NCBI GenBank assembly: GCA_051294375.1
Contig: CM119266.1
Span: 20,872,780 to 20,936,779 of the forward strand
Direction: 5' to 3'
DNA: 64,000 bases
Source of the DNA: Paraspadella gotoi
Taxonomy: Eukaryota; Animalia; Chaetognatha
Positions 1 to 49,900 of the stretch are shown piece after piece; the first letter of the stretch is position 1, and each line of letters starts with the position of its first letter. Both the position numbers and the translations under genes were made by a program. The notes beneath the pieces were generated by a model that was not told the origin of the DNA, searched no databases, and worked only from the letters and a program-made list of their open reading frames with translations.

Positions 1-3000
1 AGCAACGATGACTGCATCTCGACCGGCGACTCGGCGTCGCTAAAGATGGCGTTAAGGACGTTGGCGTCGCCGGTTTTCTCGATGTTGGACTTCGCCGTCT
101 GATTGATATGTTTCTTCAGTTTCAGACCTGAAACTTTGACGTCGCCTCGCGAATTCGTCGTCTCAATTTCGATTCTTTCTTCTCCTCTATCTTTTCTCGC
201 TTCCAAAGTCTCGGCGTCGATCGTCTCCGATATTTGAAATCTTTGCATCTCTTGGAACAGCTGGTCGACTCCGGGAGAGGTCACGGCGAAGCCCTCGGCG
301 TTTTCGTCGTCGACCGTCTCTCGAAGCGGCGTGCTCGTCTTGGAAAAGGTCGTAGCGAAAAAGTCTATCGCCCGTCGAGGGAATCCCGCGCCGACGACGT
401 CGACGGAGCCGATCGGATCCTCGAAGGTCAACTCGATAAAGTCTTCCGTCGCCAACTGCTCCTCCGCCACGCCTCCTCCTCCTCCGCCCCCGCAGTTAGA
501 CGTCTCGGAACACCGTCGCGACTTCGTCCGGTTCCCCGCGCTCACGTAGACGATTTCGCCGGTCTCCGTGATGCACGGGATGCTCCTCTGAATTTGCGAC
601 GGCGCCGTCAACGCCTCCATCTCCAGCGTTTCGTCGAGATCCCCGTCCTTGGATCTTCGCTGACGTCGTCGTCCCTGTTGTCGTCGTCGTCGTCGTCGTG
701 AGGACTTGTTCGTCAGTTTAGAGAAAGGGACGTTCTTTCTCGCCCGCCACTCGACGAGAGGGAGATGGTTCGCCCCCGTTCCCTTCTTCTCAACTACTTC
801 GTGCCCCGCCCTCCACGAATCACGATGACGCTTTCTCTCGCTTCTATCGCCGAATCCCTCGACCGAGATGCCGCTGTCCGACTCGGAAATGTTGGCGGCG
901 TCGAAGATGGCGGTCGCGCCCGATCCGCGCCTCTTATCGACCGCCGTATCCCAACGCCGAGCGACGATGCCATCGGGACGCCGACCGCAGTCCTCGCCGC
1001 CGCCTTTAGAACTCTTCTGTCGTCTCTGGATGACTTCGGCTGCCTTCGCCAAGTAGGATCGACAGAGGTCTTTCTCGCCATAAGTCGTCGGCAGAGACTT
1101 GCAAGTTCTAAAGCTTCTCAGCGGCGGCGGAGGCAGCGGCGGCGGCGGTGGCGCCACCCGCATCTTCTTCTTGGCCCGTTTTTCAGCGTCGTTCGGGCAC
1201 CGCCTCGTCGCGACCTCGCCTCGTTTCAAGATCAGAGGGATTTTGGCGTCGTGGCAAAACCTCATCGTCACTTTCTTGACTGAATTCCGTTGAACTGGAG
1301 TCGTCGTCGTTTTCGTCGTCGATGTCGTCGTCATCGTCGTCGTCATCGTCGTCGCCTGGTTCATCTCTCTCATCCGCGTTTTCACGGGCAGAGCGCACAA
1401 AACGCTCTCGATGTTTTCCATGACGTCCGCAAGAGGCGTCGTATCCTCGTAGGTGAAAGGTGCCACTTTGACGCGCCGATCGGTCGCCGACGGATCGGCG
1501 CATACCGGCGCGGAAAACGAAACGACCAGGCTGTTGTTGTTGTTGTTACTGTTGCTATTGTTGTTCGACTCTACGGTTTGCTGTTGCTGCTGACGAAGGT
1601 GTTGTTTCTCCTTCGCATCGAATTCGTCGAGAAAGTGCTTGTCATCCTTGATGTGGGGCATTGGGCTCACAGCCATGACTGGCTTGGTAAAGTTCGACCA
1701 GACGTTGGAAAGGGTGGTGTCCGTCGTCGTCGTCGTCGACGTCGTCGCAGCAGAACTCGCTGTTGTCGTTGTTGTCGCGGAAATCGTCGTCCTCAACGAT
1801 TCTTCTTCGCATTTCGATTGTTCATCGTAAAACTCGAAATCCTCAAAAATACATTCGTCCTCTTCCGTTTGCTGCTGCTGCTGCTGCTCCTGTGACAGAG
1901 ATGTTAAAATCTTCTCCTGCCGTTGCTGCAGCCGCGTTTGCTCCTTAATTTTTTTACGTTTCCGTCCGAAGGCAGATTCGAAGGCGATTTTCTGCGCGGA
2001 TTCTTCGTCCACGAAAACCAGGTCCACTTTCTTTGAAGGAATGCGTCGTCGTCTCATCCAGAGGCGAATCGTTCCGTCGACCGGAGGCTCGAGCGCCGAG
2101 TGTCTCGTCCGAGCAGCCGGCGTCGGGATTCGAGGCGTCGACGACGAAATGTTCTCGACGTCATTGACTCCATTTTCTCTTCTCCTCTTTCCAATCTCTT
2201 CCACTCTTCTCTCCGTCGGTTCTTTTTTCTCTTCGACCGAGGAAACTCCAAGAACCGCTTGCTCCAGCGCCACCTTCGCCTCTTGCCGAAGTTGCTTCGC
2301 CATTTGGCGCCGTAAAATGGCGCCGCGGGCTCCGTCGGAGGAGGACGTCCAAGCGGCGGCGGCGCCGAACCTTCGCGTCGCATCGTCGATTCCGTCCGAA
2401 ATTCGTCTCGATTCGTTTCGTTCGATTTCTCTTTTCCTCGTCGTCTTTTTCTCGATCCTCGATTTAATCTTTCTCAGTTTTGATTTAAATATTTTTCTAC
2501 GATTCCATTTTTTATGAGAACGAGCGTCGTCGTTGACTTCGTCGTTGTCATCGTCGTCGTCTTCGTTTCCTCGTTTCTCACGATCGAATCTCGGCAAAGT
2601 TCCAAGTTTCGCGTTTTCTTTTTCATTCGTCGTCGTCGTTGTTGTCGTCCTTTGTTTTAAAAGACAAGAAACCGGCAATTTTTCCTCGACGTCGTCGGGC
2701 GTCGTCGTCGTCAGCGTCGGCGGCAGCGTCGGCGGCAGCGTCGACGGCAGTCGCGGTATCGGCGTCGGCGGCGGTGACGATTCTCTAGTTGGCGTCGTGG
2801 ACTTTGTCATCGACGTCTCTTCCGTCGAATCTGAATGTCTTCTTCCCTCAACTTCTATTTTCTCGACTTCTTCTGTTTCCTCCTCTTTCTCCTCTGTCGT
2901 CACTTCTCTTTCCTCTCTTTCCAAGTTTCCCATCTCTCTCCTTTCTTCCATCTTCTTCCTCTCCACATTTGCCATCTCTTTCCTTCCTTCTTCTCCCTCG

Positions 3001-6000
3001 TGCAAAATCTCGTCTCTTTTCATGAGAATCGTGAAGTGCGACGACTCAGCAGCACCGCCACCGCCACCACCCGACCCCGCCTCCGCCTCTCCACTCTCTT
3101 CACCACCTCCTCCCACTTTCGCAACACTCTTCCACTCGACTCTACCACTCTGGAATAACACGGAGCCGTGAGTCAGAAGGAGAGAAACACCTGCCGAAGA
3201 ATAGAGGGAGGAGGAGGAGGAGGAGGAGGGCCTCCCGTCTTCGTTTTGAAAGAGAGAGAAATTCGAGATGAAGTGACGAGGAGGGAGAGAGGGAGAGGGT
3301 TTTCGGCGCCGGGAGGAATCGGCGTTCCAACGGCGGTCCGGCGTTGTCGGCGCCGAGAAATCGGCGGGCGTTCCGGCGACGAAGCCTTCATTAACCAAAT
3401 GATTATCGATCGGTCGTCGTTGGACAGATGGCCTCGTTAAATTCACAGGAGGAGGAGGAGGAGGAGGAGGAAGAGGAGGAGGAGAAAGCGATGAGGTGGA
3501 AGTGAAAAAACTTTCCCTTTTCTCAGCGACTTCGAAACGTCGGTCGTCGACCGGCGAGAGCGACGCCGATTGGTCAGACGAGCTGAACTCGGTACGTGAT
3601 TGGTCGACGTCGATTGTCCAGTCGCGTCCCTCGGTCAGCGTGACGATAACGTGACAAGCGTCTGTTGAGTTGATATCGGAGAGCGACGATGAGGACGGAT
3701 TTTTGAGTTTTTCGCTGATAACGCCGTCGTCGTCGTCGTCGTCGCCGTCGACGTCGTCATCCCTATCCACTCCAGCGCCGCCAGTGCACGTGACGGAGGC
3801 GAAGGGGCGCCCGAAAGTCGTGCCGATGGCGCAGGACGGCGCCGAGCGAGACAAGAAGACTTGACGGCGATAGGCGTCGGGAACGAACGTGCGAAGGACT
3901 GTAGGATAGGGTAGTGGGATAGGGTAGTAGGATAAGGTAGTAGGATAGGGTAGGGCAGATGTGGTGGGGAAAGAGAAAAAAAAAGATAAAGGATTAGCAT
4001 TTTTGTGATTTTTCGATTAAAATCTAAATTTCATTAACAAAATTAAACTTAACAGTCAGTTCCTTGCATTTTGATGCTAGTGAATATTGAGAGCATCCTC
4101 CAGGGACTGGCATAAAAATATCGTAATCCCCGATTAATTACTTAAGGAAGTGGTCCTTTTACACAATTAAAACATTTTATGAAATAGTATACCACTTCAT
4201 TTTTAGGGAAACCAGGTTCTCTGGGAGTAAATAATACAGAGTAGAGTCTGTGAGAGAGACTGTGCTTGAATTGTAAGTGTGATGGAGGGATAGCCTGTCC
4301 AAAATTTATTAAAATAATTGGTAATTTTAATATTGATTGTCCCAATTTCCTACTAATGCTATATTTAGACTGGGTGGCCACCAGCGCCACCACCAATCCG
4401 CCACCAGCGCAACCATTAACCCGCCACCAGCGCCACCACCAATCCACCACCAGCGCCACCACCAACCCGCCACCAACGCCACCACCATTGCCTCCTTTAA
4501 AAAAAAAAAGCGCAACGTCTTCTTTCGGTTGCGACCTTAATTTCCCCAACGTACGAAGCGATGACCTCGGAGGCCAAAGATAAAGACGCCGACGAAGGCG
4601 CCGCCGTCGTCGATGTCAGACGGCTTAGCTCAGGCGGTAAAGCCGTAGCGACGTGGCGGAAGATTTCCGGGTTCCTGACTCGGTTTAAGACAAGAGTTTA
4701 GAGGCTTTATTCCAGCGACTTTCCGGCAATGGCAAGGAATAAACGGTAAGGCGGGCCAAAATTGAACACTTTTTATAACTTTTAATTCTCTCAAAAAAAT
4801 TCTTTTTTTCCTTCTATTAATAAATCGATTTTCAATGCACACTTTTTGAAATAGTTCATTGAGTTGTCGCACTGAAGCTTTTAAATATTTATTAATATAT
4901 AACAAATGACAAAATTTTTTTTACAAGAATTAGTTTTTAAGAACGGATTCTATAGAACTTGAAAAGTTAAATGAAAGTTAGTACTACAATTTTTAAAATT
5001 TTGACAAAAAAATGGTTAAAAACAGAAAAAACGTTAAAAAATCATCATCATCATCACATTGGCTGAATTTTATAGTTTTAAAAATTTTTATCAATAAAAC
5101 AAAAAAATCTTAAAAATTTGTATTAATAACCTTTATCTAACTTTTAAAGCTCTATCAGAATCCATTAAAAAAATTGAAAAATTCAAAAAATTTTTTAACT
5201 ATATATAGTAATAAAATAATCTTTAAATGCTTCCGTGCGCTTATTAATAAGATAATTTTTTAAAATTATTTTTATTTTCATATTCTTTAACAGTCACTTT
5301 ATCATTATTTATTTGAGAGAACTTCTAGTTTTCAACCTGTTCTGGCCTAATAAACGGAGCTAAGATGTTTACTTCGATTAAAAATATATATTAATTGTAA
5401 AATTAGCTTTCTAAACAACTCACGAAAACCTCAGCCACAACAACAACAACCTTAACCCGGATGGCCCCGTTTTCTCAGCCGAAGTAAAAAAAAAAAGAAA
5501 AGAAAAGAAAGGAAAAGAAAAAGGTCGCGCGGGTGCTGGCGGGTGCCACGGGGTGCCAGTCTGCCAGATGCCATCGAGACGGCAGGTGTCGTTCGCAAAA
5601 ACGACAATAACGGTTGATGGATTTTTTTTCTTTCCTCCTTTTCTTTTTTTTTCTGAGCCGCTGGAGAAACGGAGGAATTTCAGGTCCTTTTTTTAGAGAT
5701 TGCCTTCGCCTTTTATTTCTTTTTTTCTGGAGGGGGGGTGGAGGGGGCGGAGCTAGAGGGGNNNNNNNNNNNNNNNNNNNNNNNNNNNNNNNNNNNNNNN
5801 NNNNNNNNNNNNNNNNNNNNNNNNNNNNNNNNNNNNNNNNNNNNNNNNNNNNNNNNNNNNNNNNNNNNNNNNNNNNNNNNNNNNNNNNNNNNNNNNNNNN
5901 NNNNNNNNNNNNNNNNNNNNNNNNNNNNNNNNNNNNNNNNNNNNNNNNNNAAGAAAAATCCTATTTCCTCCGTTTCTGGGAAAAAGGGAGGAAAAGGAGG

Positions 6001-7131
6001 AGGAGGAGGAAGTGGAAGGAGGGTGGTTGGCGCAAACGGGTTCGAAGGCGCTCCCGACTCAAAGTGGANNNNNNNNNNNNNNNNNNNNNNNNNNNNNNNN
6101 NNNNNNNNNNNNNNNNNNNNNNNNNNNNNNNNNNNNNNNNNNNNNNNNNNNNNNNNNNNNNNNNNNNNNNNNNNNNNNNNNNNNNNNNNNNNNNNNNNNN
6201 NNNNNNNNNNNNNNNNNNNNNNNNNNNNNNNNNNNNNNNNNNNNNNNNNNNNNNNNNNNNNNNNNNNNNNNNNNNNNNNNNNNNNNAAAAAAGAGACTTT
6301 GAATGAATTCAAGAGAATTATTGGAGGAAATTCTTTTTCTTTTTTTTTTTAAGCTTAGCGAAAAAGACCAAAACCGTTTTGTCTTAAAACAAGAACGGTA
6401 ATTCAAATGTGTTGCGCCGCGGTAAATGCCTTTTCACGTGTATTTATCGGGACATGACATGACGTGACATGACATGACGTGACATTACATAACAAGACGT
6501 GACATCACATGACTACATGACTACAATAACTTTCTTAGCACGTATGTTTATGACATGCACTGCATCAAAATTCTGTCTTTTATTTCTTTTTAGTTTTAGG
6601 ATTTCCTGAAGGCGGCGCTAGCAGTCCTTTAGTTTTTTTCTGTCTTAACAAAAGAGCAAACAACTATAGGCAAAGTTATATGCATTTTAATAAGTGGGAC
6701 AGACCGACGGACAGACATACCGACCGACGGACCGACCGACAGACCGACCGAAAAGTGACTTATAGAATTGCTCTGCGAGTACTCGCGGCGCAACTAAAAA
6801 AGGATGAATGGGAGACACTTAAAAATCAAAAGAGTCCACGAGACTGAAAGAATGCTAAACTAATATACAAAGAGAGAGAGAGAGACAGATAGGAGAGAGA
6901 GAGAAAGGGATAGACTTAATGAATTAAAAATATTGAAAAAGCGTGAGACAGTACATAAAATTTTAGTTAATAGCTAAATAGATAATGAACTGAATGAACT
7001 ACGTAAATAGACAAAGGTAAAAACTATTAGAAAGAAAAAAGGGATTAAGTTGATAAGATTAGGAGAAAGCTAGAAATCGTTGCCGCAATTCGCACCAAAT
7101 GCTAATGGATTTGTGGTACGACATTATTATA

Positions 7132-7172
<41 letters not shown>

Positions 7173-8628
7173 TCTCTTCTCTCTCTCAAACACGCACAGT
7201 CTGCTTTTGAAACGAAAGGGAATTTACGATGTAAGAATGCGATAAAAGAAAAAATTGTTGCGCCCACGAAAAAAAACTTTAGAATTTTGAATAAACGGGT
7301 GTGTCAGAATATGAATAAAAAAAGTTTCATTATGGAAGCGAGACGACAAACGAAGGATTGTGAGAGCTAGAGAGCGAGAGGAGACAGAGAGCGCAGAGAG
7401 AGAGAGTGTGTTAAAGAGGTAAACGCGAAGGGAACCAAGTTGTTCCGAGGCTAACAGAAGACAGAAGGAGGTTTGCTCGTTAATCCGTCACTCGTAATTG
7501 GCCCTAGAATTGCCATTTCGACAATCTACGTCTCCGATCCGAAATCCGCTGCCTTTTTGTATCCGCGCTTTGGGTGGCCCCTGGAATATAATGAGCTCCG
7601 GTCATGCGGCTCAGCACCTCTGTATTGCAGTTTTTCAGAGTTGATATTGTGATAAAGATATTATTCGTTGATGTTATTTCTTTGATCTTGACTCACCACC
7701 AGTGAAATAATAACTTTATTTTATTAAAGAAAACGCTATAATTAAATTAGTAAAATGCTTTTAAAAATATTTCCTAGTAGATTTATAGTATATATTCTAA
7801 ATTTTTCGGACGCCGACTCCCCCTTTGGATCGAATGGNNNNNNNNNNNNNNNNNNNNNNNNNNNNNNNNNNNNNNNNNNNNNNNNNNNNNNNNNNNNNNN
7901 NNNNNNNNNNNNNNNNNNNNNNNNNNNNNNNNNNNNNNNNNNNNNNNNNNNNNNNNNNNNNNNNNNNNNNNNNNNNNNNNNNNNNNNNNNNNNNNNNNNN
8001 NNNNNGAAAACCTCCGGAATCTAGAATGATTTATGGAGAAACCGGATGCCGCCCGCTAGTTTGTGACGCGGCAGAGTTTTTAAATCTCATTCTTCACTCT
8101 TTACTTCTCTTCTTTTCTTTTCTTTTCTTTTCTTTTCTTTTCTTTTCTTTTCTTTTCTTTTCTTTTCTTTTCTTTTCTTTTCTTTTCTTTTCTTCTTTTG
8201 GCGATGAATTTGTCGGTGGTGGGTGGCGGTGGATGCGGGGTGAGGATATCGTGGGGAAAGAGATAAGATGAGGTTTGGAGTTTTTGTACTAGGATTTTTA
8301 CTTAAAAATGTAAAGATATGTTTTTATATTAGTTTTATACATCAGTTTCGGCGATTTAGCAAAACGCTTCGACAAAACGATGTTCAGTTTTGAAATACAC
8401 GATTCTCGGTGACGCTTTGGCTGACACCGCGAGTGACTCTCTGAGTGACACGTTCGTTGGCAAAGAAACAGAATTCAGAGCCGTTTGTCACTATTCGCCT
8501 CGCGTAGCGCGAGGCGGCCGGCCGGATGATCGAGGTGCCGGCCCACCGGGACGCGGCCGGCGCAAACGCTACTCAGATCGAAAAACTCTTGCTTCATTTC
8601 CGATTCAGCTCTCTCCTTCTCTCTCACT

Positions 8629-8722
<94 letters not shown>

Positions 8723-11700
8723 TTTCTCTTCTTCCTTCTCTCTCCTCGTCTCTTTCCTCGCACACACTAGACCGGCCGGCATCGTTAATGGTTTTTCTTC
8801 TTATCACTTGCTCTATTCGAGGGATGACGTGAATTATAAAACGATGGGTTAAGTTGTTAGAGTAAATACATTACGTATTATTAAACGGACATTTATTTGT
8901 GATAATTCTTTCTTATTAAATTCTCTTAACCTTTATTCAATTTTAACAAAATCTCTTCGTACCTGAAGCGACAGAGTCGGCCATCGTGTTGAAGACGCGT
9001 TCCAACTTCTCCTCGTCCGCGATCCTCGTCGTCGCCGAGCGGCGCCACTTTCGGTCGTCACGTCGACGATCCACTTCACGGCGCCGCCCGACGCCGCTTC
9101 GAGGGTGGGTCTGGAGATGACTGGCGCCGGGCGCGCTTCGTCGCTCGCATCCGAACGTCAGTTTCGTCGTCGTCTTCGTCGTCGTCACGTTGGCTTCCAT
9201 CGCCTCGAGCGTCTCGTCCGCGAGATTCCTGGGGACGCCGTCCCAAACGCAGACGGCGACAACAGTGTGACGAAACTCGCAGACGTGATCGGAATGCGTC
9301 GCCACCAGCGCCAGGAGAGACTCGTCATCGCCTCGAATCAATAGCGGCGTCGTTGGTAAGGAATGTCGTTGCGGTTGTTGTTGTTGTTGTTGTTCTAGTG
9401 GAAATTCGTGACTCGAATTCGAATTATCTTCGCAGCTGAATTCTGATCTCGATCCTCGACGATCCTTTTGTTTCCACGTACTCGTCGGACCCCTATCATA
9501 ATTCAAAGTTACACTCGACGATGACATAAACGACCCTACAGGATCCGCCGCAGCCGCCGCAGCCGCAGCCGCCGCAACCGCCGCCGCCGAAGCGACCCAC
9601 TTCACTTCCCTGACGACAATTTCGGCGTCGGTCAAACACGATCTCTCACTCAACATCCGGCGGACGGCCGGAATGTCGGCACCGTGGCCCAAATCGGCAG
9701 ACGGAACCGGCGCAGACACTCCCGGACAATTGCATCGAACGCCGGTGGTTACATCCGGGGTTTGGGAATGTATCGTCATTACATCATGTTGAGGATCCGA
9801 GTTTGTTTCCGACGGAGAAGGATTCGTCGAGGTCGTCGTCGACGCCAGCGAGGGCGTCGGTGTGGGCGTCGACGTGGGCGTGGGCATCAAAGTGGGCGTA
9901 GGCGTCGAGAAGTGCGTGGAGTTCCTCGACGAAGACCGATCGTCGTGGTTGTCGCTCATCGGCGTCAACAGCGGGGGCGGTCGATGGGGAGACGCGGGGG
10001 AAGAAGGCGAAGGATGAGATCGAGGCTGATGGGGTTGATGGTGATGGTGATGGGGCTTGAGGTGAGAAGGCAGCTGAGACAGAAGACGATGGCGACCGAC
10101 ATCGTCGCGCCGATTCTCGACCAAACGACGCCAGCCGTCGTCGTCGTGATCGTCGTCGTCTTTATCGTCGTCGTCTCGACTCAAATCGAGATTCAAAATC
10201 GGAGGAACGAGATTGAAATCCGAAGAAGGAAATCGATGAAATTCGGAGGAAGTGGAGGGAGGTTGAAAGGAGGAGGTGGAGCAGGAAAGGAGCGGAGGGG
10301 GCGGAGTGGAGCTGGAGTTGAAAGGGAGAGTTGAGGTGCAGCTGGAGTGGAAAGGGGAAGTCGAGGTGGTACTGGAGTGAGAAGGGAGAGTCGAGGTGGA
10401 GCTGGAGTTGAAAGGGAGAGTCGAGGTGGAGCTGGAGTGAAAAGGGGGTGTCGGGGTGGAGCTGGATTGAAAAAGGAGAGTCGAGGTAGAACTGGAGTGG
10501 AAAGGGGAAGTCGAGGTGGAACTTGAGTTAAAAGGGAGAGTCGAGGTGGAGCTGGAGTTGAAAGGGAGAGTCGAGGTGGAACTGGAGTGAAAAGGGAGTG
10601 TCGGGTTGAAGGTTTTCGCTTCGTGATTTCGCTTCGATCCTCGATCTCCTTTCCTCCTTTCGAGTAGTTCCTCCCAACTTGGATTCGTCTTCCTTTCCTC
10701 CCTTCTTCCTTCCTCCATCCACCTTCTTTCCTCTCTCTCTCCTTCTCCCTCCCTTCGTCGCCAGCTGTTCCTCCATTCCTCCCTTTCTCCGTCGGAACAA
10801 TAAACGTTTTTTCGAGAGGCGAGAATCGAGGATTTCCACGGTTCGTCGCCGCACCCGCCGCCGCCGCCGCCGCCGCAGCCACCTCCTCCGGCGTTGTTGT
10901 TTTTTCCCTCATCACGTGACTCGGTCTCGTAGACACGTGACGAAAGAGAATCAGAGTCGGAAATTGATTTTCGTTTTTTCGCTTCTCCGAAATTTTCGAC
11001 GTTTTGGCGAAAGAGGAGAGGAGAGGGTAGCGGAGCGGATTCGGAAATAGGAGCAACGTAGGAGCGAGGCGGAAACCAAGAGTCGGGAAAGTGGAGCTGA
11101 GTTGGCGGATGATGAGCGGGTAAGGGCTGAGTCGACGGGTGAGGCAAGTGGGGCGAGTGATGGTGGGCTATGGGCGGGATATGGGGCGACGTCGATGAAG
11201 TATATGGAGGAGAAAGGGAGTGATAAACTGGATGATCGTTTAACTGCGCCTGTGGCTGGTGTGTCGAGATTGGATAGAGAGAGTGATGATTCGTCGAATG
11301 TGAGTTTGGCGGGAGGTGGTAGTGATTTGAGGGGCGTTCAAAGGCGGGAGGGTGTAAGGGATTGTGATGCGCATGCGCGAGATATTGAGTCGGCGGGTGT
11401 TGAGGCAGAGAGGCCGGGGGTGACGAGGGAATGTTAGGATGTTGTAGAGATGGCAGTGAAGTCAAAGGCAGATGATTATGCGGTGGCGGCAAAGAATCGC
11501 CGATCGAAAGGTTCGTTTGGGCAAAAAGACGAACCGAAGATGTAGAGAGCGGATCCATGGAAGGAGGATACAATGCAGCCGACGACGACGAGTGCGGCGC
11601 CGCCAGAGCGTTTCCGGCGCCGCTGATATCAAGCAAAGACGCCGGGTGTAAAGGACCGGCGTGACTCGGCGCCATCAACGGACGAATCGGCGCCATATTG

Positions 11701-13471
11701 ACGAAGTTTATGTCAAAAGGATCGAAGGAGTCCCGCGCCAACGTCGACGCCACCGACGGAAATCCGGCGTCGGAATGGAGCGACCGGAAGTCGTGGAGCA
11801 GCGGTGGTGGAGTGCAGGAGCTGGGAAGAACCATGGTGGAGCAGGATGGCGAGGATTCGAAAGAGATTGTTGTTGTTGTTGTCGTCGAATTCAGCGGCGA
11901 CGAATTTTGCTTCGAATAGAAAAATCTTCCTTCCGACGAAATCCGTTCTATGGTTTCTGCCTCTCGATGATTTTCCGTCGTCGTCGTCGTCGTCGTCTTT
12001 ATATTCGTCGTCGTCGTCCCTTCGAGCGAGACGTTTTCGCGATGAGAAACTCGCGCGTTCGTCGTCGTTGTGGTCGTCGTCGTCGTCGTCGTCGCGTTTC
12101 CCCCGCGGAAGGAGTTAAGATGATTGTTTTTCTTGGTCGCGGCCGTCGTCGTCTGTCTCGTCGTCGCTTTCGTCGTCGTCAACGCTTCGTCGTCCTCATT
12201 GTCGTCGTCGTCTTCGTCTCCAGGAAGCGAAGAACGGGCGCTGTCACCGGAAGTCAAAGCGAAAGGGCGCGGGAGAGTGGCGTGCGTGGAAAGACGAGGG
12301 CGAGGAGCGCGAAATGTTGGAGAGGGTGAGTTGATGAGAGATGAAGAATTGGGTCGGGGTGAGATCGTCACGAAGTCGCGTTGCGGTCGGTTAGGATGTG
12401 GCGGTCGGTAAGGATGTGGCGGACGGGAGGACAAAGGCGCGGGGTTGTAAGACAGGCGTGACAAGGGAACGGGCTCGGGAGTGTTGGAGAGGTGAGACAA
12501 AGGAGGCAAAGTGTCGAAAGTCGCCAAGAAATTATCGCTGTCATCCTCGAGGATTTTCATCTTTCTATTTTCTCTTCTTGACATTTCCAAGTTTCTTTCC
12601 CATTTTCGCCATAAATTGATTCAGTTGAAAATAAAATCATACTCTCTTCGTCCCTAATTGTTCTCTCATTTTCGGCGATCCCTCTCTCTTCTTCTCCAAT
12701 TGTTCTCTCTTTTTCCTCGAACGAATTCATTCTTTTCTTCGCTTCGATTCTTTTCTTTTCTGTTTTTTCTTCCAAAATCTTTTGTTCGTTTTTTCCCGTC
12801 AAGTTGTCGTCGTCGTCGTCGTGTTTGTGGTTATTGTTGTTTTTGTCTTCGTCATCATCATCGTCATCGTCTTCTTTTTCTTCGTCTTCGTCATCAAAAT
12901 CTGGCAGGAATTTCAATTTCGCGTCGCGCTCTTCTGTAAAGCGAGTGGCAAAGCGAAGGGGATTGTCAACGTTGCCATTGCCGCATGCTGGAAGGATGGC
13001 ATCGGCGCGGCGATCGGGGCCGGGAGCACGAGCGGCTTCGAAAAAACCGGCGTGGTTCGAAAAGACGCCGTCGTTCGTCTCTCTCGTCCGACGAAGGAAT
13101 TCAGGCATCTGAAAGTTTTGGACGAAAGCGTCGAGAAGAGACGCGGGCGAAGGAGTTGAGGATGAGGAGGAAGATGAGGAGTTGGAAGTTGAGAAGATCG
13201 AGGAGTTGAAAGGATGAGAAGATGAGGAGATGAGACGAGAAGAGGTTGAGAAAGGATTACATCCCCGCGCGCGTGGATGAGGCGATAACGCTCTCTCGTC
13301 GCCGCGAGGGGTCGGCGACTGCGGGGCGGAGACGAGATTAGTTCCGCGGTGATGATGATGATGCTGACGATGATGATGATGATGAAGATGACGATGATGT
13401 TGGTGAGGTTGTTCCTGGCGGCGGGGGGCGATGCTCCTCGCTCCGTCGGGGTTCGACTCTCTCTCCGTCAT
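1..13471 (-). CDS. TET: TET-family (Ten-eleven translocation) dioxygenase-like protein, highly diverged, probably catalytically inactive; >2800 aa, 3' end beyond window
   Basis: Two large coding exons: 13471..8963 (ATG of MTERESN; frame break near 12557-12620) and 3898..<1. The second exon appears open to the window edge: spot-translated, and the ORF track lists no stop-terminated ORF in that frame. The GT donor at 8962-8961 and CAG acceptor at 3901-3899 are both phase 1 and join EEKLERVFNTMADSVASV-LRTFVPDAYRRQVFLSRSAPSCAIGTTFGRPFASVTC, which matches TET2 [56 protein letters not shown]. Other collinear TET blocks: CNC (9726-9734), LGHGADIPAVRRMLSER, ESLLALVATHSDHVCEFRHTVVAVCVWDGVPRNLAD, TFGC (9147-9158) and GVSLLLTHGSVLFQ (3150-3191). 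Confidence 0.88.
4055..4330 (+). mobile_element. Copy of a short interspersed repeat family (family A), in the TET-like intron
   Basis: Shares ataccacttcat..gggaa.ccagg..ctctgggagt.aataa..gtgagagag..gtgatggagg..agcctgtccaaa with the other copies; 4055-4200 is the reverse complement of ~33430-33550. Confidence 0.7.
4376..4490. repeat. Minisatellite, unit approx. ccaccagcgccaccaccaa
   Basis: About five degenerate tandem copies visible directly. Confidence 0.8.
5762..6286. other. Two assembly gaps (N runs 5762-5950 and 6069-6286); further gaps at 7838-8005, 22953-23196 and 28064-28088
   Basis: Runs of n in the sequence. Confidence 0.98.
6400..6800 (-). mobile_element. Helentron-associated non-autonomous element (HINE/DINE-1-like)
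   Basis: The minus strand starts TTTTTAGTTGCG, then a short palindrome (CGAGTACTCG), CTATAAG and a (GTCY/GTCG)n microsatellite (6698-6750), with an internal (gacat)n tandem at 6451-6525. This is the layout described for HINE/DINE-1 elements. The far boundary is uncertain. Confidence 0.55.
10305..10604 (-). repeat. Coding 30-bp tandem repeat (~10 copies, PF[HN]SSSTSTL) in the TET-like N-terminal region
   Basis: Unit gtcgaggtggagctggagttgaaagggaga, repeated in frame. Confidence 0.9.
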
Positions 13472-14724
13472 AGTTTTTTTTTGTTTTGATTTTTCCTCTT
13501 GTTTATTCTCCTTAACTTTCATTACGACAAGAAGGAACAGTTGTTTACTTTGTTGCGGAGAAACGAGTTCATTCTTTCGATTTTCAGGACGAAAAGTAAA
13601 AAAAATATTTATATATATTTTTAGAATTCTTCACTTGGTTTAATGTTTTTTTCTTTTTTTTAAATATTTTTTTTTCTAAATCCGCCAAAGTCGACGCGCC
13701 GTTGTTTAATTTTCCCTTCGATTATCAGGGAGCGAGATTAGACTCTTGTTTACCTAAAAAGGAAAGGGGAGGGGGGCGGAATGGGGGGGAAGTTCAGAAA
13801 AAGTAAAAGGGTTTTAAAAGGACGGCACGATTTTTAATCCGCCATCAATGGAAAGGAAGAAAAAAAATATTAGTTTTCCCTTTCAATTCTTTTGTTTTCT
13901 TTTTTTTTTTTTTTTAATTTTCGCTCTTCAAACACAAGAGGCGAAAATAAAAACCTTTAGTTTTTTTTCTTCCCTAAAACAAAGTGAAAAACCCTCGCGC
14001 CTTCTGTTGCTTTTGTTGGTTTTTTTTTTTCGATGAACAAAATAATAACCGAATGGCGACGATATAACTTGTCCAAAAAAAATACACTTGTTAAAAAACT
14101 GAGATATTTTTTCATTGTTTTTTTTTTTTTTTTTGTCGTTTCGTTCGACGGATGATTCATCGATTTTTGGGTCACGTGACGTAAAAAAAATAAGTTTTCC
14201 TCTTCGAGTCGAACGATGGGAGTGAAAAAAGGCTGTGGCCTCGAGAGCGGATCGGGAGTGGACTAGAGTCGGTGTGAAAGTAAAAGCAAAGAGGATCGTG
14301 GGTGACGAATATCTATTTTTTTAAAAAAAAGAATAAGTTGTGGATGGCGCGAAAGCGACATCCTGTTTTTTTTGGAAGGAAAATCGAAGATAATGTAAAA
14401 TTAAAAAAAGAAAGAAAAAAAAATCGAAGCGAAAAGAGAAAACATCAAGAAGAAATCGTTTCAAGGTCGAACACGGATAGAGACAGAGATATAGAGAGAG
14501 AGAGAGAGTTTTCGGTCCAACGAATTCGAGTTGTGACCGGCGAGTCATTTTAGGGTATCTCGTATCGGGGTATCGATAGCTTCGACCCAGACTTGAGGGG
14601 GGAAAAACACGATGACGAGAGAAGAAGACGATGTTGACAAGACGACACGACGACGAAAAACAAGATCGACGATGATGGCGACGAATGAAACGACGACGAC
14701 GACGAAAAATTTAAACGATTGGCC

Positions 14725-15737: not shown

Positions 15738-16092
15738 TCATTTTGGCCTTATTTTCCCAGAGCGGCCCATTTTATCTTAAATTTTGAATCAAATTAGTTT
15801 TTAGGTTTAAAAATTAGGTTAAAAGTTAAGATATAAATTAGGTAAGTGATTATTTAAAGTAATTAGTGTTAAGTATTATTTTAGTGATTAGGGTTAGGTA
15901 TTAATATTTAGGGTTTAGGGTTTAAGATAAAGGATTATGGTCTAGGGTTAAGGTTAAGGATTAGATTAAGGCTGAAGATTATGGTTAGGAATTGAGTTTA
16001 AGGTTTTATTAAAAATTTATTTATAAATTTTAGATTAAAACTAAAATAAGGTTCAAAGAAACAGAAATGAGGGCTTTTGGATAAGAGAGCCC
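15738..16092 (+). repeat. Interspersed repeat family B with a degenerate TTAGGG-like interior
   Basis: Starts ttttggccttattttcccaga..ggccca, as does the copy at ~61378-61620. Both continue into a degenerate ttaggg/ttaagg tract. Confidence 0.6.
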
Positions 16093-21332: not shown

Positions 21333-24612
<3,280 letters not shown>

Positions 24613-24628: not shown

Positions 24629-26061
24629 GGAGTTTGACGAAGTTTTGACGGCGAATAGGGCCAGTAGGTTTTTTTTTTTTGACAGAGATGGCGTTTTAAA
24701 GAGTGCAGGAAAAAACAGCGAGAAAATTCGATAAGGAGGGGAATGTGAGAAAACGAAGGTATTATATATGCGTTTTATTTCGAATTCAACATGGTTAATT
24801 CAATACAAACAATAACAGCAAGCAAGATTTCGTCTATTGTCAAAAACAATAGAACATGTAGGCTGAAATTTAGATTATACAGTGGAGAAGAGAATTCTCC
24901 CTTTGAGGATAACATTTTTTAACTTGTAAATCTAAGAAATAAAGTTTTCTATACGCGGGTTTTACAATGTAAAAATATTTGGTACCAAAGATACTTTCTC
25001 ATCTGTACTCGAGAAAAGAGTATTATACTGTTATTTTCTAACATAAAGTACCAACGAAAAAACAAAAAAAAAACAAAAAAACAGCGAAAAAAAGAGAAAT
25101 ATTTCGAAAAAAAGAAATCGTTCCGTGATCCAAGAGTCAGAGATGAACGAATAATGAAAAGAAGAATTAGAGAAATTGGATCAAAGATTTATTATGAAGG
25201 AAGATCTTGAAACGTCGAGTTCGTGCGCGGAGGAACGACGACGACGACGACGACGACGAGGACGAAGAAAAAGGTCGAACCACAGAAGAATTCCAGTTGG
25301 GTTTTCGGGACGAGGTTCCTCTAATCGACAATCGGGAAAAACGAGATTTGAGAAAGATTTAGTTTGTTTATAAATTAATTTGTACGTTTTTCATTATTAT
25401 TTCATACGTGTGACATATTCCTTAGTATTCTTTTTTGTTATATATTGGTTTTTTTTTGTTTCCAAAATTAAAAATTATTTTTTAACCTAAACTAACAATT
25501 TTTGAATCGAATTCGCGACAACGAAACTAATCTTCGTTTTATCTATTGATTGAGTCAACCCCAAAAAATGCGGAAAACGAACATTTATTTTGTCTTTCGC
25601 GGTTTTGCCACGAATGGCAAATGTCATCAGAGTCATTGATTGACGATCGTCTCCTCGGTCAATCACGTGACTCAAGCAGAGGCGCCACTCGTATCCCTCC
25701 AAATAAAACCGTCGACGAATCACATACGTAGAGTCAATTCAAAAGTTTGTAAAACTGAATAATGTCAAATGTCTTATTACATTTTTGTGTTCGTTTTGTC
25801 AGTTAAATAATAATGATAATATTTTTAAAATGTTTATATGATGTTATATATTTTAATAAGATCTATAAACTCAATTCTAGATATTTGATGAATCTACAGA
25901 ACAAGACAGAATTCTTGAGAAAGTCCCAAAAAGTTGGTGCCTCATACCTCATCCCTCTTTCGCGGCCAAAACCCGTCGAGCGAATATTGGACGACAATAA
26001 AAGTCCAAAACTCATGTATTTCCATATTTTCCAGAATTTTTTATTTTCAGTTCTTATCTCT

Positions 26062-26093
<32 letters not shown>

Positions 26094-26329
26094 CTCTCTT
26101 CTTTTCTCTCTCTCTCTCTCTCTACAAAGACGGAATTCAATCGATGTCCTGACGCGCGATAACCTCGACCTCTCGCGAGAAGAAAAGAAGGAAAAAAGAA
26201 AACAAAGGAAAAGAATAAAAGGAGGAAAAAAGGAAAAGGAGAGAGGCGCCTTGTCTTCCCGACTCACGCTTATGTCAGGCGAGGTTTAGAACAGTGTAAA
26301 TGCAAGGCTGAACAGGGTTAACACTCTCC

Positions 26330-26406
<77 letters not shown>

Positions 26407-26856
26407 AGAAGAGAGAGAGAAGAGAGAGAAGAGAGAGTGGCGTAGGGCAGCCGAGAAGAAAAAAACCCGCGGCAGCCGAATTTGTCACTTGTCTCACCGA
26501 GCGATTGAGTCTAGGACAAAAAAAAAGTAGGTGAGAAAGACAAGGAGAGATTCTTTGTCCTTGTCTCATTCGTCTCACTTTGTCTTTACTTTCCTCTTTA
26601 GTTTCTTCTCTTTTATTTTAAAACTAATTTCGTTCTTCCTTATATCTTTTTTTTCTTTTTCCAATTTCCCCCACCTTTTTTTTCCTCTTAACCTAAATAA
26701 GGCGACGGGGATTCTCGTCTTTACCGACAATTTTCCTTTTTTTTCAGGTCAGATTCTCTTCCTTTTCATTTCCTTCTTTTCTCTTGTCCTTCTTTTGCTG
26801 CTTCTTGAATTTTCTTTCTTTCTTCTTTCTTTCTCTTTCTTTCTCTTTCTTTCTTC

Positions 26857-26920
<64 letters not shown>

Positions 26921-27173
26921 TTTCTTTCTTTCTTTCCATTTTCTATAAATAACTCTATCTTTATTTTGTCGAATATTTTTTTTTTCCATTTCTCTAAATA
27001 TTTCTATTTTATTTCTTCAAACATTTGCTAATTTCATTTCCCCAAATGTTTTCATTTTCATTTCTTCACCGAATTGTCTCTCGTCTTTTCAGCGACGTCG
27101 AGTTTTGATGCGAAGCGACGGAGTTTTGATCGACCGCCCATCAAAGTTGATGGCGTTTATCTCTCCCGCCGCC

Positions 27174-27240
<67 letters not shown>

Positions 27241-27821
27241 CCGCCGCCCGCCGCCGCCGCCCCGCCGCAACCGCCACGGTTTCCAAAATTTCGCTTTCTT
27301 TACTTTCTTTGACGGCTTCTGTGTTTGAGAGTTAACCCATGTTATACCTTTGACTCTTGGATATTTAGTAGTAGTTGTCCGTTATTCATGGGTCAGTTAA
27401 AACTTTCTAATTTATTCTACATGAATTTAATTAACGAAAACATTGTTCTTCTTTTTTGAGGGACTTGAAACTGTCGACATTTTCAAGAAAACCGAAAAAG
27501 CCAAAAAAAGTCAGAAAAAGTCACAAATCGTGCATCAAGAAGAACAATTGTTCTTTCGGTTTTTCTTGAGCCACTGCCGATTGCCAACGTCACCCATGCT
27601 TCTTTCATCGTGTTTCGCGTCACTATACATGGACTTTAGCGTTTTTTAAATATGTAGAAATAAAGTTCGAAATTGCAAACTTAACGCTTAAATTTCTATA
27701 AATAAAAAATACCCAATTAGATATTACAGGTATTATAGATATAGATAATCATAGTAAAAATCTTTCACATCCCGAATGCCACAAATCCACAATCACATAT
27801 CCACCGTCTTCTCTTTCAGAC
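24629..27821 (+). repeat. ~3.2 kb direct tandem duplication, copy 2
   Basis: Near-identical to 21333-24612; most differences are single-base indels. Confidence 0.93.
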
Positions 27822-28209
27822 AGACCACTAAAAACCCCAACCACTCTCCAACTACCACCACCACCACCGCCCCCCCAGCCCCATCTCCCAGGCCCCGGCG
27901 GTTCCGGCCGTTTCCGGCCGGTTCCGGCTGGAGCGACGTATCGTTCCGCTCCAATCTTCTTCGCTGCCGGAAAAAACGGCGACAGGAGCCTCGAAAACTT
28001 GGGGCGCCGGAAATGGCGAGGAGCGTGGGGGAGGGACGGGGGGGAGGGAGGCAGTGGAACCCANNNNNNNNNNNNNNNNNNNNNNNNNGGGAGGGGGAGG
28101 GGTGGAAGAGGAATTGGGGACAAAAATGTCGGGGATCGGGGAGCGACAGGGAATGGAAGGGATTGTGGTTTTGAAGGAAGTTTCGAAAAGGAGAATTTGA
28201 AAACTTGTG

Positions 28210-46903: not shown

Positions 46904-49900
46904 TTACTTAACGTCCTCGCTGCGAATCTCGGCCGCGGCGCAGGACTCTCCGTGAGGGAACGCCCACCTCAAGATGGCGCCGTCCTCGGAGCAGCTGATT
47001 ATATAGCGCTGGTCGGGCGATATGGCGACGCGGGTGATGTTGCCCGCGTGCCCGATGCCCACGTGGGTCACGGATCCTTCGTTGAAGGTCCAGACCTGAG
47101 AGAGATGAGGAATTTCGTCCGTAGAATAAATAGAAGACGATCATCGAAGTAGCGGGCTTCGAACATTAAGCATTCGATAATTGTATTTAATTTGAATAAT
47201 TATTTAATAATTTTAAAGAAAAGCGCAGTCTTCTTTCGTCAAAAAGTTTTTCATTAGACGAGTTTTTAATACTTTTTCAACCTATCAAACCTACAACCTA
47301 CAATAGAATAGAAATAAAATAGAAATAAAATAGAATAGGAATAGGAATAGAAAAATATTAGAAATTACTAATCAACTAAGCTTTGAAAAACTTGGGGGGG
47401 AAGGAATTATTACTGAGAGCACAATCTCAACCCCTCACCGCCTTAAAGTCAGTCTCACTTACCTTCAGCAGCCGATCCTGTCCCCCGGTAACGAAGTACT
47501 TTCCATCGTTAGTGACTTTAATGCCGAGGATGGCGCCAGAGAGCGAACCCTCGAGGGCGCGGATGAGGTTCCCGTCGAAGCACTCGAAGTAATCGATCTT
47601 GCGGTCCGTCCCGGAGGCGATGATCTGACACTCGCGCGGTTCGAAGGTCACGCATTGGAAGAGAGAGTTGGCGAACATGATCTGAAGGCGATGGCACTCG
47701 CTAGTGGGAGGAGGGAAATGGGTAGGGAAAAGGAATGTTGATATAAGTTTGCTAACATCACCCTGTAGGCTGACAGCATTCTGAAACTTAAAGAATATTT
47801 TTTTAGAAGCTATCGAAAAATCTTACATTTTTTTCTCTCTCCATCCTTATGAAAATGAATGCCACCATGTACAATTTATCCAATTCGATTCCATTCGCTT
47901 TTTTAATTTTTTATTTCAATAAATCGATTTATCTCATTTTGTTTGCCATTTTTTTCTCGAACACCTCAACTACCTAAAAAAAATTATTTAATTACTTTTT
48001 TAAAAACTTATATCTTTGGGACAACAGTTTATTTATCTTTTTTTCACATATCCTTAAAAAAACTTAGCAGCGTGCGTGACCACGATAAATCAGAACAAAA
48101 CGAAAACCAAAATCTTTTCCTCCAAAACTCACATGATGTCCCAAAGGATGCAGGAGCCGTCGGTGGAGCAGGACACCGCCTCCCTGTTGTTCTTTTTAAC
48201 GTCGATCATCGTGACGGCGCCTTTGTGCTCCTTCAACGCACAGATCATCGACTTGGCTTCAACGGTGTTGTCCCAGATTCTGGAGGATAAGGATGATTTA
48301 GTTTGAAAAAAAACAAACTTTTGGGTCGGGCTCATCGAGAATTAATAATAAAGTGAATATTATATTGATCATAATTCGCAGAAATCCCTTTTTCCGTTCC
48401 TCACATCGTAGAACTAAAGGGTTTCACCACACACACGCTTCACACTTCACCTCACGCCGCCCTCCCCTCCCCCGCTGACGATCCTCCGCGTATCCGCCGT
48501 AACGGCGAGGGCGGTGACGCCCTGATTGTGACAATCGTGGATGGTGAAGAGGATTGTGCCCGACTCCGGAAGGAAGGCGCGGATCTTGCCGTCGTCCCAA
48601 GAGGTGAGGATCGCGGATCCGTCGCGGAGAAACTTCATCGCGGTGCACTTCATGTTGGGGACGTTGATGCGGAGGAGTTCCTGGAGGAAGGAGGCGGTTG
48701 GAGGAGGAGGAGGATGAAGAGGAAGGCAGGGGGACAAATATGGCTATTTAGTTGTTTGTTTCAGAGTCATGCTTTTGTTGATGAATGATTTATTTGGTCT
48801 TGACGTGCCAATAAAATAAAAAGAAAGCAAGATATTTCTGGAGATAACATGATTTTCAGATCTTCCGAGACTTCTGCATTTTTTTTGTTATGCACCCTTG
48901 AGGGAGACAAAAGTCACTATAGAGCAGTGCGTATTTAAAAATAAAAATCATGTTATCTCCAGAAGTATCTTGCCTTCTTTTTATTTTATTGGCGCGTAAA
49001 TACCAAATAAATCATTTATCAATATCAATGGGTAGTATTATTTAGTCCCCTTTGCTCTTTCTAACTAGAAACAATTTCAACTAATTTCACATCCTCCAAC
49101 GCCCCCCTCAATATCCACCCACCACTCCGGTGTCGGCGACCCAGATCCTGATGTCTTCGGTGGAGGCGGTGGCGAAGAGTTTGGAACAACCGTAGGGGAA
49201 CTCGACGGCGTTGATGGCGTCGGTGTGGGCGGTGAACTTGAGCTCCAGCGAGAAGTCGCGCATGGTGACTTTGTAGATTTGACATCTGAGAGGAGGGGAT
49301 CGTTATATTTATCGATCAATCAATCAATCAATCAAAATTCATTCAATTAGTCCTTTAAAGACTAGTTTTTTCTAACGCCCAACAAATGAATAATTAATTC
49401 AATAATTAATTAATACTTAAATTAACGAATAAAATATTTTCATCTCACCACAGCCTCGCAAGCAGTCGATCGACCAAATAGATAAATCAATCAATCATCC
49501 AATCGTTAAAAAAAATGTTCTCTCTCACCTGGACGTCCCCACGTAAAAGTAACACGCCTCTCCGCCGGGCCCCGTCGGCATCAGCGCCACCGACATGACC
49601 TCTCCGTCGACGCACTTGGTCTTGGCGCGCTTGAACTTCTCCTTCTTGACGAGGAGGTTGATGCTTCCGTCGCCGGCGCCGACCACGAGGTTCCCGTTGT
49701 AGAGTTGGCGGATGGAGTTGACGCCTTGGGACATCTTCTCCTTGGCGCTGGTGACGAAGAGGAAGAGGAGAGTGCGCATGTTGATCTGGACAACGTCGCC
49801 GGTTGTGGTTCCGCCGTAGATTGTCTCACCGTCTTCGTCCATCTGAAATGTAAATGACGCGGATATAATGATAGAGACTAATGCGACAAATCTCTTGTTC

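Follow-up and report, generated by a model that had tools for sequence, protein, structure and literature searches.

A minus-strand gene in a 64,000-nucleotide (nt) stretch of the chaetognath Paraspadella gotoi (contig CM119266.1, positions 20,872,780 to 20,936,779; hereafter the window) is, judged from its sequence, a metazoan TET homologue by descent. As aligned, it has lost the HxD...H iron triad and the 2-oxoglutarate contacts, with R1896 and S1898 called from a weak register, and its product is predicted to be unable to oxidise 5-methylcytosine (5mC) because the HxD motif and the distal His are missing. The gene is probably a natural pseudo-TET, kept as a non-catalytic chromatin scaffold after the loss of 5mC. 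This reading draws on gapless homology at the splice, the retention of none of the seven cofactor residues together with all four residues of one zinc site, and a lack of CpG depletion.

Two long open reading frames (ORFs) on the minus strand, 12620-8943 (1,225 codons) and 4016-3 (1,338 codons, open at the window edge), are separated by an AT-rich stretch with three N gaps. A donor (TTCAG/GTACGA, after 8963) and an acceptor (CCTACAG/TCC, before 3898) are both present in the sequence, and joining 8963 to 3898 in phase 1 removes a 5,064-nt GT-AG intron (3899..8962) that contains the three N gaps. From 12620 onwards, the joined frame stays open for at least 2,518 codons and reaches the window edge with no stop. 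Neither long exon contains a stop, compared with means of 39 and 52 after base shuffling and minima of 18 (upstream) and 36 (downstream) in 200 shuffles each, and the insertions relative to TET2 are all in frame. The long upstream exon (8963..12620) encodes a Ser/Pro/Thr/His-rich, low-complexity N-terminal region and then the TET Cys-rich region. A third upstream frame (ORF 12557-13630, ATG at 13471), rich in His, Ser and Asp and of low complexity, would supply the probable first coding exon (12643..13471) through a candidate 71-nt GT-AG intron (12572..12642); this predicted join gives at least 2,778 codons without a stop. The candidate is one of six frame-joining GT-AG pairs shorter than 200 nt and the one with a GTATGA donor; an assembly frameshift or an upstream ORF are the alternatives to it. 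The first-pass annotation, made from the letters of the window, had placed the gene at 3010..9740. This extent is too small: the gene starts at 12620 or, more likely, at 13471, and continues beyond the window's left end. The splice that it proposed is borne out by the donor and acceptor, the phase and the gapless TET homology across the joint, and the exons do stay open over kilobases. Of the marks of a pseudogene, neither stops, nor frameshifts, nor the lack of a spliced product are found, the 5′ junction at 12572-12642 being predicted only. The upstream coding exon also carries a tandem repeat (10249-10611) with a unit of ~30 nt, 78-84% alike, encoding Ser/Thr/Pro/Phe-rich decapeptides.

The homology extends along the product in TET order, with the Cys-rich region followed by the split beta-helix core, and the presence of the Cys-rich region identifies a metazoan-type TET. 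In a search of the PDB, the piece 8964-9743 matched human TET2 chains with E 1.2e-4, the sole significant matches among the six listed, and the piece 2991-3899 matched them with E 0.02, ranked under a flagellin-hook repeat protein whose match is taken as chance. The spliced product scores 53.5 bits against a profile of 99 fish TET2 cores (those of 125 stored proteins that have all four anchors), with no gap across the splice, and 60.6 bits once one invertebrate TET is added. The latter, L001:1-3045, comes from a metagenome contig and served as comparator; it is an intact invertebrate-type TET with an uninterrupted frame of 1,015 codons. In an ungapped six-frame scan with the fish reference, four blocks rank first or, in the case of the splice-spanning one, beat every unspliced position. 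With the invertebrate reference, three of those four blocks and the VIVTLT strand are also top, and the HLG block is equalled by 15 of 127,804 positions. The distal core block GVSLLLTHGSVLFQSGRVEWKSVA (3120..3197) is the best of 127,846 six-frame positions with either reference, and the core strand NSTDACHVIVTLT (3630..3673), equivalent to N1387..VCTLT, is the best of 127,912 with the invertebrate reference and lies outside the top matches with the fish reference. Collinear Cys-rich and core blocks, as first described for this gene, are thus supported by both profiles.

Two further observations concern TET-like sequences. On the plus strand within the intron, a 66-codon antisense piece (4501-4698) scores 10.2 bits (E 0.028) against the TET profile, the best of 20 reversed or shuffled controls reaching 7.1 bits. 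Its match falls on the splice-spanning helix, the Cys and GRPF expected next are missing, and the exons are not copied in it at the DNA level; it is either chance or an old inverted remnant. In the databases, a Danionella TET2 model has an internal duplication and skips the HxD-bearing segment, probably through a gene-model error; database TETs that lack HxD call for a check against DNA or RNA.

Human TET2 numbering was transferred through a fish-to-human alignment, in which we take the TET2 construct to start at residue 1129; H1416 is likewise assumed to be a 2-oxoglutarate contact, and the structural zinc residues are presumed to group into three sites. The numbering was checked against residue names in the available text of PMC6625141, which counts R1261, H1881, R1896 and S1898 among the cofactor ligands and assigns DNA recognition to W1291, K1299, H1904 and K1905; the iron ligands are H1382, D1384 and H1881 (PMC6244454, in part). 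The 23 positions checked, including the seven iron/2-oxoglutarate residues, are invariant in 99/99 fish cores and in the invertebrate comparator. None of the seven is kept in the window gene (0/7). At the HxD site (3674..3787), a Gly/Asp-rich replacement includes an acidic insertion of 25 residues that sits between an upstream and a downstream register. The H1382/D1384 positions read Asp/Asp (3761, 3755) in the former and Ser/Ser (3686, 3680) in the latter. Since no His occurs between GRPFASVT (3791) and CHVIVTLT (3653), the HxD motif is absent in any register. The H1881 position is Lys (3131-3129), within the gapless, top-ranked distal block. Both losses had been noticed in the first-pass annotation, and both stand: the first agrees with contigs from two sequencing runs described below, and the second holds with either reference.

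Three other changes read from the same sequence need qualification. The replacement of R1896 by His (3038-3036) falls in the probable last core strand HFTILMKRDEILHEGEEG (2985..3041), which is the best placement in the gene region and weaker than the other blocks. The assignment is partly positional, as 25 of 127,888 positions (fish reference) and 213 of 127,888 (invertebrate reference) score as well. In this weak register the strand reads R1896H, S1898T, Y1902K, H1904D, K1905E and H1912E, and it keeps one of 15 conserved sites. The NRRC..CAC segment, reported as deleted, finds no match with the fish or the invertebrate reference, and H1416 is also unrecognisable. The interval that would hold NRRC..CAC has 79 residues, nine fewer than the 88 of fish TET2, and the segment (9018..9194) is better described as shortened and rewritten: R1261, C1271 and C1273 are not recognisable in it, an LTFGC remnant with C1289 (9149) survives, and an Arg-rich stretch follows. 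The EQLHVLP segment is likewise unrecognisable and not clearly deleted, as DDRRFEV at ~3548 is a possible remnant in a by-eye alignment that is not significant.

The Cys-rich blocks (9195..9740), into which poly-Ala and poly-Gln are inserted in frame, retain C1133, C1135, H1219 and C1221 (at 9734, 9728, 9287 and 9281). One structural zinc site thus has 4/4 residues, ~150 residues apart; at the 42/106 rate given below, the chance of this is ~0.025, a post hoc figure from hand-anchored blocks. Among the other zinc-site residues, C1289 and C1358 are kept, C1298 and H1912 are changed, and C1271, C1273 and H1380 are not kept; the C1193 position reads His in an uncertain register. Q1348, C1358, R1366 and T1372 are retained in the best-conserved block (3788..3898 and, across the splice, 8963-9017), as are H1868 and, in the downstream register only, N1387. 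The R1359 position in that block reads Ala. Altogether, 42 of 106 conserved sites are kept in eight hand-anchored blocks, the whole core having 200. The core is followed by a charged, low-complexity C-terminal tail of ~990 residues (1..2984), which matches no Pfam family, is covered by contigs of the same two runs and leaves the window.

The beta-helix fold may be partly kept at most. AlphaFold, applied to the downstream half only, gave a mean predicted local distance difference test (pLDDT) score of 39.5 for the sequence by itself and of 40.3 when given 21 aligned rows, two blocks being misplaced in that alignment. R1359 is structurally essential, and collapse is predicted for R1359 mutants of human TET2 (PMC6625141, in part). 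Given pLDDT near 40 for the half-domain, the single site of 15 left in the last strand and the Ala in place of R1359, the statement that the TET fold is retained is an interpretation that the model does not confirm. A DNA or RNA reader role, also suggested at first, is disfavoured. W1291, K1299, Y1902, H1904 and K1905 read R, H, K, D and E in weakly supported registers, and because base-pocket and DNA-contact residues thus appear lost, a canonical DNA/RNA base reader becomes improbable.

Public sequencing data address whether these losses are genuine. Among the runs listed, nine runs of one organism, from three studies, hold at least half of the sampled words. Contigs of four runs were compared with window positions 1-5200; two of these runs, X5 and X8, are of that organism and belong to two studies. 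X8 is RNA and X5 DNA by guess, none of the runs listed being on record as RNA. One X8 contig (contig 30, 1,619 nt) matches 3729-3901 without difference and then departs from the window; the three bases past 3898 fit the last bases of the intron and of the upstream exon alike. Were it to continue at 8963, this contig would finish at 10411, where the first repeated 30-mer of the tandem repeat in the upstream exon has its final base; this is the expected stop because a contig of a 31-mer graph ends at a repeated 30-mer. The length is consistent with a direct 8963/3898 splice that neither includes a hidden exon nor changes the net length, and supports the presence of the spliced form in the public contigs. 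The confirmation of the junction in reads that the first-pass annotation called for is thus obtained in part: the length fits the splice to the base, and the joint itself is inferred from a run only guessed to be RNA.

The X5 and X8 contigs read through the HxD site without difference. X5 has no difference at the Lys and His codons, and the single X8 difference in 3076-3438 would not suffice to make a His codon of AAG. Because contigs from two studies show the same letters, the loss of the catalytic site is not an assembly error. A hidden HxD exon was also considered; for the X8 form it is rejected because of the length of the contig and because contigs run straight through the HxD site. When 2,359 six-frame pieces were searched with the profile, none carried the missing motifs, the N gaps being unreadable. 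Two long run contigs have three gap letters each and the other contigs none. The 15 within-species differences listed (six synonymous, nine non-synonymous, no stop) all lie outside the TET core; the X5 contigs have none across 3000-3438 and 3494-3898 and 13, clustered, in the tail. Two features of X5 are recorded separately. Its depth climbs towards the 3′ end of the gene (6, 9, 17, 52), with none in one intron bin, which is RNA-like. Its contig 20 matches 3729-3898, not to 3901, with 145 other letters upstream; possible causes of this break are a variant base at the exon's end, use of a different donor or exon, and clipping. Two runs from other organisms (X10 and X11) yielded short repeat pieces only and no orthologue.

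The base composition of the window bears on the substrate. Gene-body methylation depletes CpG in housekeeping-type genes. Over the whole window the observed/expected CpG ratio is 1.33, with 31 of 32 bins exceeding 1; it is 1.06-1.42 in 8/8 exons of four neighbouring genes, housekeeping genes included. The undepleted CpG in housekeeping exons indicates that 5mC is probably absent or scarce in this genome.

A precedent comes from flies. The Drosophila genome is largely devoid of 5mC and its TET acts with PRC1 (PMC11068012 and PMC10735219, in part). Tet-null flies die and catalytic-dead flies are viable, both proteins sharing more than 92% of binding sites (PMC11068012, in the portion available); Drosophila thereby shows that a TET retained without catalysis is viable. 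The P. gotoi gene would fit the following order of events. Loss of 5mC in the lineage would have come first; the residues of the iron site, the 2-oxoglutarate contacts, the base pocket and the DNA loops would then have been freed from selection; and a long protein, disordered for the most part and with a remnant TET core stabilised by zinc, would have remained under selection. Like Drosophila TET without catalysis, the pseudo-TET may work via protein contacts at enhancers and promoters. The proposal of a catalytically dead TET maintained as a scaffold, already made in the first-pass annotation, therefore stands as to homologue, splice, residue loss and open frame, and its scaffold part is the best reading, put forward by the Drosophila analogy.

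Several points weigh against this proposal. It rests on one 64-kb window, with TET copy number and DNMT1/3 lying beyond its scope, and the deduction about 5mC, drawn from the same window, is indirect. Six synonymous versus nine non-synonymous differences are not significantly below neutral (p 0.13). Keeping none of seven cofactor residues at the 42/106 rate has a chance of ~0.03, a post hoc value from hand-anchored blocks and of modest significance. Erosion is evident from 71/209 identities to fish TET2, against 128/209 for the intact invertebrate TET. The HMMER check with Pfam Tet_JBP (PF12851), proposed at first, was negative for the piece from the downstream exon (16.7 bits, where the cut-off is 34.9; the intact invertebrate TET scores 162.5) and positive with the two custom TET profiles; a Pfam scan of the two whole exons found no family. 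No CXXC domain was recognised in the window by motif scan. Relatives were also sought: a word search with the Cys-rich piece among longer proteins gave 0 of 7,990 scored candidates, a search of 1.84 billion representatives gave three matches, to a fish TET2 model and to two fragments, with no close relative among them, and scans of JGI metagenomes gave 0 of 593 and 1 of 109 candidate stretches, the sole locus being the intact comparator and no orthologue. ESM Atlas searches with both halves returned no usable match.

The gene might instead be a dead paralogue or old retrocopy beside an active TET elsewhere in the genome, acting as a regulator or scaffold, which we consider unlikely. Vertebrate TETs have several introns in the catalytic region. 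The single intron found there in the P. gotoi gene, against the many short exons of the nearby tubulin, WD40 and exchanger-like genes, would suit such an origin, but a neighbouring SLC5 gene is also nearly one long exon, and intron loss is therefore not peculiar to the TET gene. Duplications of invertebrate TET do occur, as in Dimorphilus (PMC11292947, in part), yet invertebrate TET is mostly single-copy (PMC8330077, in part), and with CpG undepleted even in housekeeping exons, little substrate would be expected for an active copy.

Somewhat less likely again is that the long disordered regions are the reason why the frame is maintained, with the TET domain decaying under relaxed selection and no longer folding or functioning. 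The survival of 42/106 sites in alignable blocks, the single site in the last strand, the Ala at R1359 with the collapse predicted for its human mutants (PMC6625141, in part) and low-complexity insertions that break the domain at four places are what decay would leave. It would not readily leave all four residues of a zinc site spread over ~150 residues, an intact block order, or X5 contigs with no difference across 3000-3438 and 3494-3898 against 13 in the tail, although the latter cluster. Acquisition of a new ligand, either nucleic acid through the Arg-rich stretch (~9100-9030) replacing the DNA loops or a metal through the Asp at both HxD positions (in one register) and His at 3653, 3038 and 3002, is very improbable, given Lys at the distal His position, acidic residues at H1904 and K1905, Arg-rich and Asp-rich runs throughout the protein that require no special reading, and no model in favour of a new site.

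The remaining features of the window form an ordinary gene neighbourhood comprising an SLC5 transporter, alpha-tubulin, TRAP-gamma, a C-type lectin domain, a WD40 gene and an ion-transport-domain gene. A membrane protein with C-type lectin exons (~35.0-39.3 kb) has no Pfam match for its membrane part, which we take to resemble XK-related proteins. The SLC5 gene (40.4-42.7 kb), with one 1.5-kb exon, has its best named match, at 50%, in a protein of an annelid; proteins of a brachiopod, a mollusc, a chelicerate and amphioxus come next, which fits an invertebrate bilaterian. In a quick-search tree of the SLC5 protein with 48 sequences chosen from at least 120 matches, it groups only with two unnamed proteins. 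Alpha-tubulin lies at 44-46 kb, the WD40 gene, presumably similar to CFAP52, at 46.9-52.9 kb on the minus strand, TRAP-gamma at 55.5-56.4 kb and an SLC9C-like exchanger, named from an Ion_trans match, at ~57-63 kb on the minus strand. An imperfect inverted repeat of ~250 nt (48778-49022) is located inside the WD40 gene. A tandem duplication of ~3.2 kb (21333-24612 and 24629-27822; 93-96% identical, with N gaps in each copy) is either real or two haplotypes assembled in series. Upstream of the TET gene, degenerate CCCTAA-like (telomere-like) repeats were seen by eye at 15860-15990 on the minus strand.

The TET family itself is already known; what is new here is a natural, spliced animal TET without active-site residues. 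According to a survey, animal tet is absent only in species without 5mC, and flies keep one (PMC8330077, in part); tet has been lost in Myxozoa (PMC7826176, in part), and the TETs of three annelids have an intact HxD (PMC11292947, in part). Searches of listings of open-licence papers for a natural inactive animal TET showed none, subscription papers being mostly uncovered and the supplementary alignments of surveys being able to hold one. The reading of a natural pseudo-TET kept as a scaffold has a stronger form, which we hold tentatively and with slightly more doubt than confidence: that an animal lineage which lost 5mC has this gene as its sole TET, that conversion to a pure pseudoenzyme is a third fate of TET, and that the kept residues mark the surface of an ancient non-catalytic role. 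How far TET biology depends on catalysis is unsettled and is mostly probed with engineered HxD mutants, and a natural TET with a dismantled active site would be their evolutionary counterpart. Together, the kept parts (one zinc site and the 1205-1249 and 1318-1376 blocks) and the lost parts (iron and cofactor ligands, base pocket and DNA loops) would point to what the non-catalytic role requires. Surveys at the level of Pfam or BLAST can count such lineages as TET losses.

Like metazoan TETs as represented by human TET2 (PDB 4NM6/5D9Y/9HXV), the gene encodes a low-complexity N-terminus, a Cys-rich region and a split core in the same order, with C1133/C1135/H1219/C1221, C1289, Q1348, C1358, R1366, T1372 and the H1868-GS motif kept. 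It differs from human TET2 in having no HxD, Lys for H1881, loss of R1261, H1416, R1896 and S1898, and changed base-pocket and DNA contacts; the core insertion is 152 residues instead of 437 between the same anchors, and the ~990-residue tail comes after the core. Natural copies predicted to be inactive are also found among the TET/JBP genes of the fungus Coprinopsis cinerea, where 32 of 46 are likely active (PMC12730594, in part). The fungal genes are multi-copy and transposon-linked, whereas the window gene has a Cys-rich region, an ordinary neighbourhood and more than 2,500 open codons. The resemblance to Drosophila Tet lies in a TET residing in a genome that is (here apparently) poor in 5mC, the fly protein having essential non-catalytic functions (PMC11068012 and PMC10735219, in part). 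Drosophila Tet, however, keeps HRD and oxidises 5mC in vitro, and its dead allele was engineered (same sources); in the P. gotoi gene the loss is natural and reaches the whole active site.

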